Shown here one piece after another: positions 29,301 through 35,300 of a stretch of DNA of 64,000 nucleotides (position 1 is the first letter of the stretch; each line of letters starts with the position of its first letter). A program made the position numbers and the translations under genes. The notes under the pieces were generated by a model. That model had not been told where the DNA came from, made no database searches, and saw only the letters and a list, made by a program, of their open reading frames with translations. The DNA is from Euglena gracilis. Taxonomy: Eukaryota. The stretch is from the NCBI GenBank assembly GCA_039621445.1, contig CP154954.1, forward strand, positions 20,818,642 to 20,882,641, given 5' to 3'.

Positions 29301-32300
29301 CATTTGAAACCCCTAAAAACTTGGTCATCGATGAAGATAAACAATTAAGAAAAAAACACGCAAACTGAGGCCTGATCCGATTTGAGACCAAAAAAGGCAG
29401 ACGATACAGGAGTAGGGAGAAACAGCGTAACGGAATGTGAAATGAACCGGGTGTGGATGCCACCGTCCCCACTGACACAAAACCATGTGGGATGTCCATC
29501 GACCTGGGCGGTGGTCTTCTCCCGGCGCACCACCTCCGGGTGGCGCTTCATGTCGGCCAGCTGCCGCATCTCCGCGAACGTCACCTCCCCCCGCCCGCCA
29601 TCCAGCAGCATGTATGCCTGCTGGATGAGCCGCAGCCGGTGCTCCGGGATGGGGCCGCGGAGCACGTACAGGAACTCCTCCACCGAGACCTGGCCGGACC
29701 CATCTGCGTCCATGATGGCCATCTGGGGAATGACGCGCAGAAGACGTGCAAGGAGTGCGTAATACCAAATGATAATGATGACAAAAATAATGATGATGAT
29801 GATGATGATGATGATGATGATGATATGATAATGACGATGATGATGATGATGATGATGATGATGATGATGATGATGATGATGATGATGATGATGATGATGA
29901 TGATGATGATGATGATGATGATGATGATGATGATGATGATGATGATGATGATGATGATGATGATGATGATGACGACGATGATGATGATGACGACGACGAC
30001 GACGATGATGATGATGATGATGATGATGATGATGATGATGATAAGCATAATATTTCTGATGATATGATAATAATAAGATGATAATAATGATAATAACAAT
30101 GTAGATGATATTCAAACATACACTTTGCACTTCATTTATTTGTTTACCAACACAAGAAAGCTAAAAATAGAAACGATGTGTGAGCCAATTCCTTTCAAAA
30201 GGGGCAGACCACTTTGTCCATCTGCGTGGAGCTGAGGGCCAGCCCGTAGGTTTGCAGCCCATCCTCGGGGCAGGGTGGCTAACGTGCCCCAACACTGTCC
30301 ATGTGGCTGGGGGAGGCAAAGATTCGACTGGCAGACGCGCATCCCTTGAAAGGAAATGAAAAGAGACAGACAGGTCAGATGCCTATCACTTTTTACTCAA
30401 GCAACTTGATGGGCATTGCAAACAAAAAAAAGTCACCCAGCCATTCAGCCAGGATTGTGAAACAAAGTCATGGCCATTGCTTTGCGGCCCTGACGAAGTT
30501 TCAGGGATAGCCAAAACAAATTTCAGCAACCCTGGCCATTGCGGGAACTGCTAGGGCTCCAGGTGCCATGCGAGATGTGGCACCTGTGGCTCACATTCCA
30601 CATGTTTGTCGCCCTGCAGCATCGCACACACCCCACCCGGCTTGAGTTAAAGGTGGAGAATTCTTTCTTCGGCCCTGGATGAATGGCACTTGTACTTCCA
30701 GTTTTGACCGGAAATCAATGTCACTGGCCGAGCGGGACGGAGGCAGACGCAGTATGGCCGGCAGCAGTCCACAGAAAGTACGGCCCCTCCAGCGTTCCAT
30801 CTGTTCGCCCCAAGCACCCACATGGACAATTGTGCCATTGGCAACACTGGGGGCTTGCAACGAGTGCACCGGTGGCTTGCAAATGGCTGGGGCTAGTCAG
30901 AGCACCCACACCTTGCATAAGAACTTTGGGCAAAAGATAAGGTGGCTGCATGCGTTTTAAGCGTCGTGATTGGATTGCACTGGAGAGGCATGATTACAGC
31001 ATTGCTAATGGCTTGTTCTGAGCTGCGAAGCCGTGTTTAAGTTTACCCAGCCCCGGCAAAAGAATAGAGGCAGTGACAGGCGGGCCGGAAGGCTGCAGAC
31101 CCCCCAACGAGAATTAAAACACAACGGCTCAAAACTCACCCCCAACTCGAGTCTTCCATGACAGTTCAAGGCCTACCCCAGCCCACCCCCGCCCCGGGTG
31201 TTCTGCAGCTCGTACTTGTCCAGCATGCGGTTGCCGTTGTCGTCCATGATGCGCAGCACCCGTGTCAGGCCCCGCACCCAGGGCTGTACGGAATGGCCTG
31301 GTGGAGGGGGGGGGTCGACCCACCCACCCACCATGGTGCCGCCCAAGGATATATTACCTTGAGCCCCGAAATCGCCGAAGAAAATTTTTGATCTAAAAAA
31401 ATCGGCGCCCCCAAAAATATGGATCTCTGGAGCGTTGTCTCAGGGTTTCCCACTGATTCGTACTTGGGGACTCCCTTGCCCATTCGTACTTATTCGTACT
31501 TATTCGTACTTATTCGTACTTATTCGTACTTATTCGTACTTCAAAAAAGGGCCATGTATAGCAATCGGTGACCATTTGGTCTGCTTCCTTGGGCACATCT
31601 TCAACGTTCTGAAACCGGGAAAAGCAAGGAAAACAGGTCATTCACTTGAGAAACTATCTAAGTGACGAACTCATGCTTGGCGAAATTTGTGGAAAAAATC
31701 GCTGTGAGAAAAAAATACAAAACGGTACAGGAAAAATACATTTCTTCTTTGCAGCTGATGTTGTCCAGCATGCCATGCACGAACAAATACTCAAGATGAA
31801 ACGAGCGGATTGTTCAATGGTGTGCAAAGCGTTCTTCGCAGTCACCATTGCAAAACGTGCCAACGGCTGCTTGCCGAAGGTTAGATGACATGCGTTGGCG
31901 GTTTTGACATCAATCAGTCCTGCCAAACTGAAAGACCGTTCAGACCAGGGCAATTCAATTTTGTGAGCCACACTTTCTTCCCGCTAAGATTTCCTTATGC
32001 TCGCAATATGTGTGGTATACACTCTGTCCACTGACCGGTGCAAACTACTCCCCTCTTTCACACTGCCATGTACAGATGTGTACTTTCGGATGAGTCCCCT
32101 GATGGATGGATGGTCTAACTTGTTGATGGGCAAACCTAAAAATCATTTTCGGAGGGAAAAGAGGACATGAGGCGTCCTGCAGCGTAAGATATGCATCACA
32201 TACAGAGAAGTGTGAGGGGCCCTTCAAATAAGTGCAATGGTGTAGAAAATTGTACCTTTTTCTACTTGGCAATTCGTACTTATTCGTAACTGGGGAATTA

Positions 32301-35300
32301 TTCATTCGTACTTATTCGTACTTATTCGTACTTATTCGTATTTTGGCAGATCTCGGCAATTCGTACTTATTCGTACTTATTCGTACTTATTCGTGTACGA
32401 ATCAGTGGGAAACCCTGGTTGTCTACCTACCCAAAACTCAAAAAAAAAATGGGTTTTATTTTTCAACCATGATTCCCGTACAGCCCTGCCTGCACCCCCG
32501 CCTTGCCCCCCTTCCGCGTCACCAGCTCCCGGATCTGCTGCAGCAGTTTGTCCGCCTCCGTGCCAGGGCTGAATGGCCGTGTGGGACCCCCTCCTGCGAG
32601 TTGCCGGCTCAACCCCCCCCATTAGAAATTGTGTTTTCCGCCATACTGATTTGGGGGGGTTACAAGCCACGGAGCGCAGGCCCATGGAACAACGTCTGGG
32701 ATGTGTAACCCCCCCCAATTAACCCGGCGGGGTGCCAAGTTATTGGAACCAACGCGCCGTACAGGAATTTTGCCTAAAAAGGGGGTGCCAAATTACTGGA
32801 ACCATCATTTTTACCCCTCCCCCCACCAAGTTATTCGGCCAATGCCAGGGCAAGGGCCCCGCCAGGTTATTTGGGGGGGGGGGTTAGGTCACACAAAGCT
32901 AACCTGGCCTGGCCTGCGAGGTGGGTTGAACAGCAGCCTTTCCTCCCGCCACCGACCCATCCTGAGCATTGTTTTCGACATGAAACGCTTTCTGCAAAGG
33001 TCCCTTGATGCTGTATTTTTTCAGGCTGCATATGACTCCTTCAGCTCTGAGTGTGTCAATGAGCAGCCTTTCTTTCAGGGAAGTCGAAAAGGAAAAAAAA
33101 TGCGAGCTTTTTGTGGGACCCATTCTGGGTGGGGGGGGGGGTTGGCCTCTCCCCACGGCAGGCAGTCCATTCCACACTGCTTGCTGCCTGCAGCAGGAGC
33201 TGCCTCTGTGAAGAAACGTTGATCCGTTGAACGAAATGGGACGGGGCATTGTATTTCTCCGCCTGAACTGGTGGGGGGAGGGATGCGTCGGGGACGAGAG
33301 AGCTGACCGCCCCCGGAGAAAAAATGCTGCTCTTGTGCAGCCAGCCGAGGGACGTGAAAGGGATCTCTGACGGGAGATTCCTTGAAGACTTCGGAGGAGG
33401 TGGGTCCAGCCCAGGGACTTATCACCCTTCCCCCCCCCCAACGACCGGTAACCTCTGTCCTCCGACCGGGGGGGGGGGGCGTTCGACATAGAGGGGGGGG
33501 GTCGCTGAGCTCCCTTTATGGGTGAGAGCGAAGCTAACCCCTGGGCAAAATGGGGGGGGGGGTCGAACCCCCCCGGGAACCACCCTCAGGAACCGGCAGA
33601 TTATTACCATGATCCCGGCTCCGTTCCTGGAACCCTTTCCCAGCTGCGAGCGAGGGGATTTCTAATTTCCAAATCACCTCCGTTTGACCCCCAACTCCGG
33701 CCAGGCCCGAGTTATTCAGAGAAAATTTCAAAGGAAATGTCCGGAGACCTAAATTGAAGCCCTTAAAATGCCCTATCGAACAGGATTTTGATTTCCCTGC
33801 AACTCCCGGACCAGGCCGAAATATGGCCGATTTACGACCCAAAACAACGCGAAACGCTTGCAACTTAGCCGTTGTTTGTGTCAAAAATTCAATTTTCCAA
33901 AATTTCTCAAAAATGGTGGGGAATCAAAGAAAATGTACGGAGACCTAAATTGAAGCCCTTAAAATGCCCAATCTAACGGTATTTTGATTCGCCCGCAACT
34001 CCCCGCCTGCCTAAGTTACGGCCATTTTTCGGCTAATTTGGGCCATCTCGTGCAGTTTTGGCCAGTTTTGACTCAGCCTCTTTCGGCCATTTTTGGGTTA
34101 AAAAAAAGTCGAAAAAAATCAAAAAAAACAAAAAAATTGCCCAAAACCATGTTTTTTGGCTTCCTGGACCCGGAAAACCTTTTTTCAAGCCGAATCAGCG
34201 TTTTTTGAACCCCCGGCCCCCCATTTTTGGCCCCAAACCCATGCATTTTGGGTCATTTCCGGGTCAAAAAAGTTGAAGAAAATTTACACAACTGGCATAA
34301 ATTTCAAAAATTATTGTAAATTACCATAAATTACAGGTGTGTAATATATAAATCATAAATTACGCCAAATTTGCATTACTAGTCTTTTTGGCTGCCCATT
34401 GCATGCAAACCCCATTCAGAGCTCAGCACTATTCAATACCTGGTAAGACACGGGGGATTGGGTGCCCCATGTTTGCAGGGGGGAAATGTGCAACTTAGCC
34501 CTTCAAATTATGCAAGTCAAAAAAATGAAAAAAAATGAAAAAAAAATTGCAAAAAAATGCAAAAGAAAATTGCAACTTGCATAAAACCCCTGAGAAAAGG
34601 CTAGAATATAACAGAGTTTTGCTGCTTAAAATTCGTAAACATGTGGCAATGCCGGTGTACCTGTCAATGATTCACAAGAAGACCTCCTGGAAGACAACGG
34701 CAAGCACTGAAGCTTTGAAAATGAACATGAATGCCGCCTGCATGTTCAGTCTAAGCAAATCGTCCCTCCAGGTCACCATTGAACATCAATGAAGCGGCGG
34801 CACGTCGCATTTTATTGCACAACGTGGAACGCAACTTGGTATCAACACACCCAGCAAGACTGAACGAACGTGGTGGCACACCCTTCTGCATTGTATAACA
34901 CTACATTTGGATTTCACACATGAAGAAGTGTGTGCTTTCAACGTCAGCAGAGGTGGTGGGAATGGTCAGCAAAAACTTGGCAACTTGGGCGAGGGCACCA
35001 CTGTGCTTCGCCCAATACTACATAAGAGAAACGGAATCTGAAGGGAACACTTGCTCCACGCGGCAATACCGCTGCCAATCCCCTTGAAATTCGGTATCAT
35101 TCACAGCGAACGAAAGCATGGGGTATTGTGCAGGCTCGTGGGACAAGTCCGGAAGATTCCACAAAACTACAAAAAATTACAAACTACAAAAATCCAGGGC
35201 AAAATACTTTATGCAAAAAAATGCAAAAAAAAATGCAAAAAAATGTAAATTATGCAAGTTGCATATTCCCCCCCCCTGCTGAATGTATGTATGGGAAGCC

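Follow-up and report, generated by a model that had tools for sequence, protein, structure and literature searches.

The locus and the splice junction

The window analysed here is a stretch of 64,000 nt from contig CP154954.1 of Euglena gracilis (20,818,642-20,882,641), and all coordinates are positions in this window. On its minus strand lies a gene for a calcyphosin-like EF-hand protein, whose coding sequence is interrupted by a 1218-nt intron with noncanonical ends. An earlier reading of this DNA, referred to below as the original prediction, had proposed that this intron is a miniature transposable element with inverted repeats (MITE), and that cutting 3 nt before a CAG and 5 nt after a CTG removes the element together with exactly one copy of its TSD, the 8-bp duplication of the target site. 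The features at the locus are as follows, the elements bounded by terminal inverted repeats (TIRs) being assigned to two families, here called M and N.

41563..26352, minus strand: calcyphosin-like EF-hand gene, 561 aa, 19 exons and 18 introns, from protein-to-genome mapping
32493..32558, minus strand: upstream exon, residues 314-335 of protein P0002, ...RKGGKAGV
31274..32491, minus strand: nonconventional intron of the EF-hand gene (intron 12), 1218 nt, register N3-CAG...CTG-N5 followed by G, from RNA joints and protein mapping
31200..31273, minus strand: downstream exon, P0002 residues 335-360, (V)RGLTRVLRIMDDNGNRMLDKYELQN
32489..32496, minus strand: 5' 8-nt flank, sense sequence GGTGCAGG, five nt in the exon and three in the intron
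31271..31278, minus strand: 3' 8-nt flank, sense sequence GGTGCGGG, five nt in the intron and three in the exon
31279..32488, minus strand: outer element of family M, bounded by TIRs, 1210 nt with its nested insertion, antisense to the gene relative to the copy at 26922 (plus strand)
31441..32417, no strand assigned: nested element, family N, 977 bp, with 23-nt perfect TIRs starting CAGGGTTTCCC, inside the family M element

The host gene was assigned to the calcyphosin-like EF-hand proteins from sequence matches. A single exon matched Pfam EF-hand_1 (E=1.2e-5, just under the cutoff), the closest PDB match of single exons was a calcyphosin-like protein (E=1.9e-7), and the Pfam EF-hand families precomputed for P0002 point to the same identity. 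The exon downstream of the intron aligned with residues 43-63 of the solved calcyphosin-like protein; for the 22-aa upstream exon alone, the PDB matches were designed helical proteins only. P0002 is a 561-aa EukProt protein (EG_transcript_6694) that is 99% identical to the EF-hand gene and maps to it exon by exon; the exons share 97-100% identity with EukProt proteins named EG_transcript_*. Single-residue differences between the window and P0002 were seen at 41245-41243 (residue 39) and 37394-37392 (residue 228), and these would be consistent with a strain or allele difference from the transcriptome source. Eleven of the 18 introns of the gene are GT/GC-AG introns and seven are nonconventional; intron 18 was classed by eye, one pair of its triplet being mismatched. 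Exons in the window are short, and GC-rich spurious open reading frames (ORFs) are long.

To locate the junction, sequence data were mapped over positions 30150-34500: two raw RNA-seq runs carrying the same species label (X20 and X23), a contig set recognised as spliced RNA (X1), and a DNA-like contig set (X15) with a flat depth of ~47 across single-copy introns and exons alike. The joint 31273 -> 32492, which skips 1218 nt, was found in nine reads from six starts in X20, in three reads from three starts in X23, and in one X1 contig with a depth of 664. No contig in X15 contained it, despite the depth of ~47 over the flanks. The RNA junction thus lies where the original prediction had placed it, between 32492 and 31273. 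It is slidable by up to 6 nt with the mRNA unchanged, as six letters fit either side. The G of the downstream 8-mer stays in the mRNA, which places the donor cut 3 nt or more before CAG and the acceptor cut no further than 5 nt past CTG. Across the junction P0002 reads ...RKGGKAGVRGLTRVLRIM... (GKAGVRGLTRV) and, judged by this protein sequence, confirms it from a separate transcriptome. An ortholog that is 85% identical (P0003) has VRG at the site and no indel.

Anatomy of the intron

Read in the sense of the gene, the sequence runs ...GGGGGTGC up to 32492, then AGG-CAGGGCTGTACGGGAAT ... ATTCCGTACAGCCCTG-GGTGC through the intron, then GGGGCC from 31273. Of seven equivalent junction registers, none has GT-AG, GC-AG or AT-AC ends, in agreement with the claim of an intron lacking GT-AG at ...GKAGV-R-GLTRV.... 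The rightmost register, AGG-CAG...CTG-GGTGC followed by G, matches the published code for nonconventional introns, 5'-N3CDG-/-CH'GN5-6 followed by R, which was defined by knock-in genetics (Nomura et al. 2025, PMC12501133). The two intron ends (40+40 nt) co-fold into a 15-bp stem of -44.6 kcal/mol. With noncanonical ends, the code, paired ends and removal from the mRNA, this is a euglenid nonconventional intron.

The TIRs of the outer element are 17 nt long with one indel (32488-32472 and 31295-31279), and 13 of the first 14 positions match. Outside them lie the flanks GGTGCAGG and GGTGCGGG, which match at 7/8 positions (binomial tail ~6e-4); when the comparison was made at k=7 and k=9, only 3 and 4 positions matched. 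The sole mismatch (A) falls in the intronic part, and the exonic version stays in the mRNA. The intron is as long as the element plus eight (1218 = 1210 + 8), so that the proposed composition of 3 nt, a TIR-bounded element and 5 nt, with an 8-bp direct repeat outside the TIRs, was recovered in the CAG/CTG register, the repeat being imperfect.

The intron is also a composite, which the original prediction had not noted: a family N element lies within the family M element. The nested element has 23-nt perfectly complementary ends CAGGGTTTCCCACTGATTCGTAC and 10-bp subterminal repeats, and is flanked by a perfect 7-bp repeat, GTTGTCT (31434-31440 / 32418-32424). If the nested element is subtracted along with a single copy of the 7-bp repeat, the outer element would measure ~226 bp; its relatives measure 220 and 285 bp.

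The repeat family in the window

Family M elements are ~220-285 bp long, with 17-nt TIRs beginning CAGGGCTGTACGG and an 8-bp target duplication. The TIR core occurred six times in the window at no more than one mismatch, where 0.22 occurrences were expected, and the TIR 17-mer nine times at no more than three mismatches, where 0.16 were expected. Beyond its TIRs, the EF-hand element is homologous to the copies at 3471, 26922-27206 and 11743-11962. In the non-duplicated part of the window the family comprises three full-length copies (one with the nested family N element), one partial copy (3471) and one TIR alone (41952). Depth in X15 rises ~40-fold in the bin containing the family M left end. 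Copies and relatives outside the two introns that consist of family M elements are:

26922..27206, plus strand: family M copy, 285 bp, flanks GGGCATGC/GGGCATGT matching at 7/8, defines no splice sites
3471..3640, plus strand: partial family M copy, left TIR with two mismatches, homology continuing ~160 nt further
11341..11577, no strand assigned: related TIR element, 237 bp, CAGGCTTCTTTTTA ends, perfect 8-bp flanking repeat GTCCAGAG

The element at 26922-27206 had been described as free. It belongs to the family and has 8-nt flanks; it is not free, as it sits within one of the EF-hand gene's nonconventional introns (27624..26800). The left end reported at 3471 is indeed a family M TIR with homology behind it, and no right end was found for this copy. 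The related element at 11341-11577 is nested in a conventional intron (intron 16, 11710..10991) of the helicase gene described below. A family M-like TIR with three mismatches was also seen at 41952-41968 (and 58392-58408), ~400 nt upstream of the EF-hand start codon, with no partner end identified for 41952-41968. In a reversed-sequence control there were no flanking repeats at k>=7. Scanning metagenomes with a 16-nt TIR gave 120 loci, none similar to the element further in, and these are chance matches.

Several small non-coding copies, homologous past their TIRs and flanked by duplications of fixed length, make family M a MITE family. Its TIR starts CAGGGCTG..., which fits the (C/T)AGGG criterion for hAT elements. 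We call it a hAT-like non-autonomous element because of the 8-bp duplication and the CAGGG ends only.

A second intron of the family in a helicase gene

Another intron that consists of a family M element lies in a second gene.

25004..10503, minus strand: DEAD-box helicase gene, 17 introns, mapped with protein P0001 (EG_transcript_7585), exons 100% identical
11738..11965, minus strand: helicase intron 15, 228 nt, equal to the family M element 11743-11962 (220 nt) plus 8

The register of helicase intron 15 is GAC-CAG...CTG-ACTGC followed by G, and removal by the 3+5 rule yields exactly the ...ADR/EAS... of the transcript-derived P0001. Its flanks, ACCGCGAC and ACTGCGAA, match at 6/8 positions, with one match each at k=7 and k=9. 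Both flank mismatches pair an intronic with an exonic base, and the mRNA keeps the exonic base. In the direction of its gene, this copy is co-linear with the copy at 26922 (plus strand); the EF-hand copy has the antisense orientation. One splice geometry therefore serves both orientations, as had been proposed. The original prediction would also have been abandoned if no other family member defined an intron; a full-length one makes up helicase intron 15.

Flanks and spacers of the other introns

To place the two introns among others, 40 introns were collected from three mapped genes (EF-hand, DEAD-box helicase and AK6-like). Registers were scored by the published code, since an unsupervised search for the best terminal stem was too noisy for interrupted stems, and conventional introns (n=21) were scored in the same register as a control for flank identity. 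The five junctions of the AK6-like gene, for which no identical protein was found, were mapped by a 90% ortholog and are less certain. The introns comprised 21 with GT/GC-AG ends, 16 nonconventional introns with a terminal stem, two unclassified and one ambiguous, the last being AK6-like intron K1, which can be read as GC-AG or in a 3+5 nonconventional register. The two spacers of the 16 nonconventional introns summed to 8 in 12 introns, to 9 in three and to 7 in one. Introns with other arrangements, all on the minus strand, are:

20183..18872, 39648..38818 and 8507..7225: nonconventional introns with a spacer sum of 9 (3+6)
13368..13112, 13912..13433, 14660..13934, 38761..38671 and 18821..18397: introns departing from 3+5 with CAG/CTG, one each with 3+4 (sum 7); sum 6; no terminal stem and GG..AG; CTG...CAG (91 nt); TGT...ACA

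In the 8-nt register, flank identity was 7, 6, 5 and 4 for four introns and no more than 3 for the others. Flanks matching at 6/8 or better were found in 2/13 nonconventional and 0/21 conventional introns. For the 11 introns of the first two genes, a permutation test gave P=0.0095. Introns with better-matching TIRs also had better-matching flanks (Spearman 0.61, p=0.026, n=13). Because the nonconventional mean, given below, does not differ from the conventional one, the signal rests on two introns and on this correlation, which fits decay with age and does not prove a general rule. Intron 20183..18872 (H6) has 6/9 identity in a 9-nt register, a hint of a 9-bp duplication class.

The original prediction had asked for identity at 8 nt in excess of 7 or 9 nt across all nonconventional introns. 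Identity was specific to k=8 in two introns, and as a group the 13 introns had no excess over conventional ones. Its claim that the TSD explains the spacing likewise holds where the intron measures element + 8, at two introns; as an account of the 3+5 consensus of nonconventional introns in general, an 8-bp TSD is plausible and weakly tested.

Explanations for the intron

Our best explanation, in which we have high confidence, is that a family M element inserted into an exon of the EF-hand gene and is now removed by stem-guided 3+5 cutting. A hAT-like family M element would have landed in the coding exon with an 8-bp target duplication. In the pre-mRNA the two TIRs would pair, and the nonconventional machinery would measure from the TIR stem, making one cut 3 nt ahead of CAG and the other 5 nt past CTG. 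As 3+5 adds up to the 8-bp duplication, the transcript would lose the element along with the equivalent of one duplication, restoring the pre-insertion frame (...G-V-R-G-L...), as the original prediction had it and as the RNA junction bears out. A family N element would later have landed in the loop, leaving removal unaffected. This explanation joins four observations: the anatomy of the intron, its RNA junction, the repeat family to which it belongs, and a further intron of that family in the other orientation and in another gene. From these we infer that the intron arose with the insertion and was not an older intron into which the element went, and that splicing probably operated from the first generation after insertion. 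That the stem sets the cut sites is suggested by analogy with published knock-in experiments, in which a donor spacer of 3 nt and an acceptor spacer of 5 nt were required, +1 being tolerated and -1 giving ~20% (PMC12501133).

A number of findings weigh against this explanation or its extension to other introns. The flanks are imperfect at both family M introns (7/8 and 6/8), and the exact splice register inside the 6-nt slide is not readable from RNA. Neither an allele nor a paralog with an empty site was seen; the gene copy that the duplication created from 48247 onwards has the same insertion. By eye, no candidate for a hAT transposase or for an autonomous partner was noticed among stop-to-stop ORFs of at least 170 aa in window 1-48300. 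Among the introns, 11 of the 13 in the 3+5 register have no more than 5/8 flank matches, and the mean number of matches was 3.31 in nonconventional (n=13) versus 3.05 in conventional introns (n=21, maximum 5; Mann-Whitney p=0.46), the conventional introns averaging 3.05 because the splice-site consensus also makes short repeats. With the two AK6-like introns added, the permutation test gave P=0.051 (n=13). Spacer sums of 9 (three introns), 7 (one) and, in the unclassified intron H12, 6 depart from the rule. Lastly, three CAGGG-ended elements (31441-32417, 7277-7981 and 46524-47279) have 7-bp flanking repeats. Such elements would shift the frame by one under 3+5 removal; both family N copies (31441-32417 and 7277-7981) are located within introns.

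These findings bear most on the possibility that 3+5 is a fixed property of the machinery with no historical link to TSDs, so that elements with 8-bp duplications and CAG/CTG ends are simply those that survive in exons, as through a filter, and most introns derive otherwise. The few introns that retain a duplication of at least 6/8, the group mean, the deviating spacer sums in the same genes, the CAGGG ends of the 7-bp-duplication elements, and intron 31199..30261, which is single-copy in X15, all point this way. Against it, flank identity climbs with TIR identity, as decay with age predicts; flanks of 6/8 or better are confined to nonconventional introns; intron H6 combines a spacer sum of 9 with 6/9 identity in the 9-nt register; and a published, newly gained intron carries 8-nt repeats (PMC4770533). 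We consider a fixed 3+5 without TSD history rather unlikely. Another reading, which we put forward tentatively and with a little less than even confidence, is that nonconventional splicing is TSD-calibrated transposon excision: 3+5 would match 8-bp and 3+6 9-bp duplications, removal would be seamless from the start in either orientation, and bursts of MITEs would have made most of the nonconventional introns, the prevailing kind in euglenid genomes. At genome scale, the 3+5 of the machinery may have been tuned to duplications of 8 bp, or elements that make them may simply be the ones its filter lets through.

The remaining alternatives concern the EF-hand intron itself. M-related and N copies do sit within introns (26922 in 27624..26800, 11341 in 11710..10991, 7277 in 8507..7225), and an older nonconventional intron could have existed at this codon, with family M later entering it or replacing its interior and taking over the pairing of the ends. 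After such an entry, remnants of the older intron would be expected beyond the TIRs, whereas only 8 nt, part of a 7/8 direct repeat, lie between TIRs and exons, and likewise in the helicase gene (220+8, 6/8); this history is very improbable. We give as little credence to the direct repeats being scars of double-strand-break repair with captured filler DNA, a mechanism proposed for an E. agilis gapC intron with 8-nt repeats (Milanowski 2016, PMC4770533). The inserted DNA here has TIRs and belongs to a family with at least four copies in 64 kb, whose 8-nt flanks differ in sequence and are constant in length, the signature of a transposase. Loss of the element at the DNA level by somatic excision, rather than by RNA splicing, is a formal possibility only and a negligible one. 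hAT excision is known in other organisms; cut-and-paste excision usually leaves footprints, not the exact loss of one duplication, and the joined form occurred in none of the X15 contigs.

Other elements and a segmental duplication

Besides the nested copy, the window contains a second family N copy and another TIR element:

7277..7981, no strand assigned: second family N copy, 7-bp flanking repeats, in intron 8507..7225 of the AK6-like gene
46524..47279 (and 62952-63708), no strand assigned: CAGGG-ended TIR element with poly-G ends and a perfect 7-bp flanking repeat, CCCAATG

The 10-bp subterminal repeat of family N is TACGAATAAG, and the depth of the family in X15 is 10^4-10^5, compared with ~47 for unique sequence. 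The copy at 7277 has an internal deletion, the joint of which (31860->32142) is also present in RNA reads; some family N copies are therefore transcribed. The 23-nt family N TIR had no match in the genome contig or viral contig collections.

A segmental duplication of ~15.8 kb relates 31801-47571 to 48247-64000 at 98.5-99.6% identity. It covers half of the EF-hand intron and the 5' part of the gene, with its left breakpoint within the nested family N element. The duplicated EF-hand copy is truncated, consisting of the first 335 codons in exons at 58004..48939. The duplication could be genuine or an assembly artefact. A coding-looking stretch on the minus strand (47572-48246, ...HLKHFHSKSLQDWMWKRH...) adjoins its breakpoint. 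Long microsatellites occur in introns or between genes at 29800-30050, 42600-43400 and 24000-24700; a trinucleotide run lies within conventional intron 30209..29723, and the other microsatellites have CA/GT-rich runs.

Comparison with known systems

How nonconventional introns arise has been asked since the 1990s. They account for 71.8% of all E. agilis introns, and the work that reports this number calls their origin unclear (PMC12501133). A MITE origin was put forward in 2014, in a paper noting that euglenids had as yet no known transposable elements (Milanowski 2014, PMC3935182). A strain-specific, newly gained nonconventional intron in E. agilis gapC with eight-nucleotide direct repeats followed (Milanowski 2016, PMC4770533), and a 2024 review draws TIRs and TSD-like repeats at the borders of nonconventional introns (PMC11282704). 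Hence the MITE origin idea, the TSD-like repeats and the 3/5 spacing are already known, and the concrete family, its two orientations and the length identity are new. No paper was found that gives a name to an element family, identifies 3+5 with the length of an 8-bp TSD or places the elements in a superfamily, in a search of main texts to which supplements may add.

The window gives concrete support to the older idea that euglenid nonconventional introns began as transposon insertions. It supplies a TIR family with 8-bp duplications, two members of which are whole nonconventional introns, verified at the RNA level, in two genes and in both orientations, while other members sit harmlessly within introns. 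The resulting rule, that the intron equals the element plus its TSD and the spacer sum equals the TSD length, is testable genome-wide and in the EgGSL2 knock-in assay. If the rule is general, intron gain, transposon tolerance and non-spliceosomal RNA excision would be linked.

Compared with the euglenid nonconventional introns already described, the EF-hand intron shares the lack of GT-AG, CAG at +4..+6 and CTG at -8..-6, the 3/5 spacers, the following purine, the paired ends and the slidable junction (PMC12501133, PMC3935182, PMC4770533). It differs in having a concrete TIR family, copies that define no splice sites, an intron copy in the opposite orientation, and a length of element + 8. The gapC intron 4 of E. 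agilis is likewise a recent gain, in one strain, with 8-nt repeats at the junction; it was read as break repair, and the available text reports no repeat family for it (PMC4770533). With Ac/Ds, whose ends are (C/T)AGGGATGAAA and which shows 8-bp duplications as well as repeats in subterminal position (Du et al. 2011, PMC3260210), and with other hAT elements, the elements studied here have in common the 8-bp duplication, (C/T)AGGG TIRs, short subterminal repeats (in family N) and short derivatives, some with nested insertions. Unlike those, they have no TIR similarity past CAGGG, and sister elements make 7-bp duplications.

Introners of Micromonas, Aureococcus, dinoflagellates and other organisms resemble the EF-hand intron in that a short transposon with TIRs and a TSD enters an exon, is removed with one duplication-equivalent so that the frame is restored, and forms intron families (PMC11282704). 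However, introners depend on the spliceosome for their removal: the element brings one splice site, and the second is made in a 3-nt TSD (PMC11282704), whereas here the cuts would be set by the stem and the duplication has 8 nt. The "introner mechanism" named in the original prediction is therefore apt insofar as the element works like an introner, and inapt in the spliceosomal sense, as no register has canonical ends.

In SOS splicing, described in C. elegans and human cells (Zhao et al., Nature 2025), transposons are also removed independently of the spliceosome through pairing of their inverted terminal repeats, which protects the interrupted genes (PMC12779559). Its factors are AKAP17A, CAAP1 and RTCB, the last for ligation (PMC12779559), and euglenids are not mentioned in that paper. 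SOS splicing is imprecise, with many isoforms and as few as 2% in-frame (PMC12779559), in contrast to the single 3/5 register and exact frame found here. Animal SOS splicing is the mechanism nearest to euglenid removal. If nonconventional splicing is indeed TSD-calibrated transposon excision, it would be a more precise relative of SOS splicing in animals, with an endonuclease and RTCB-type ligation, and circular intron products would be explained.

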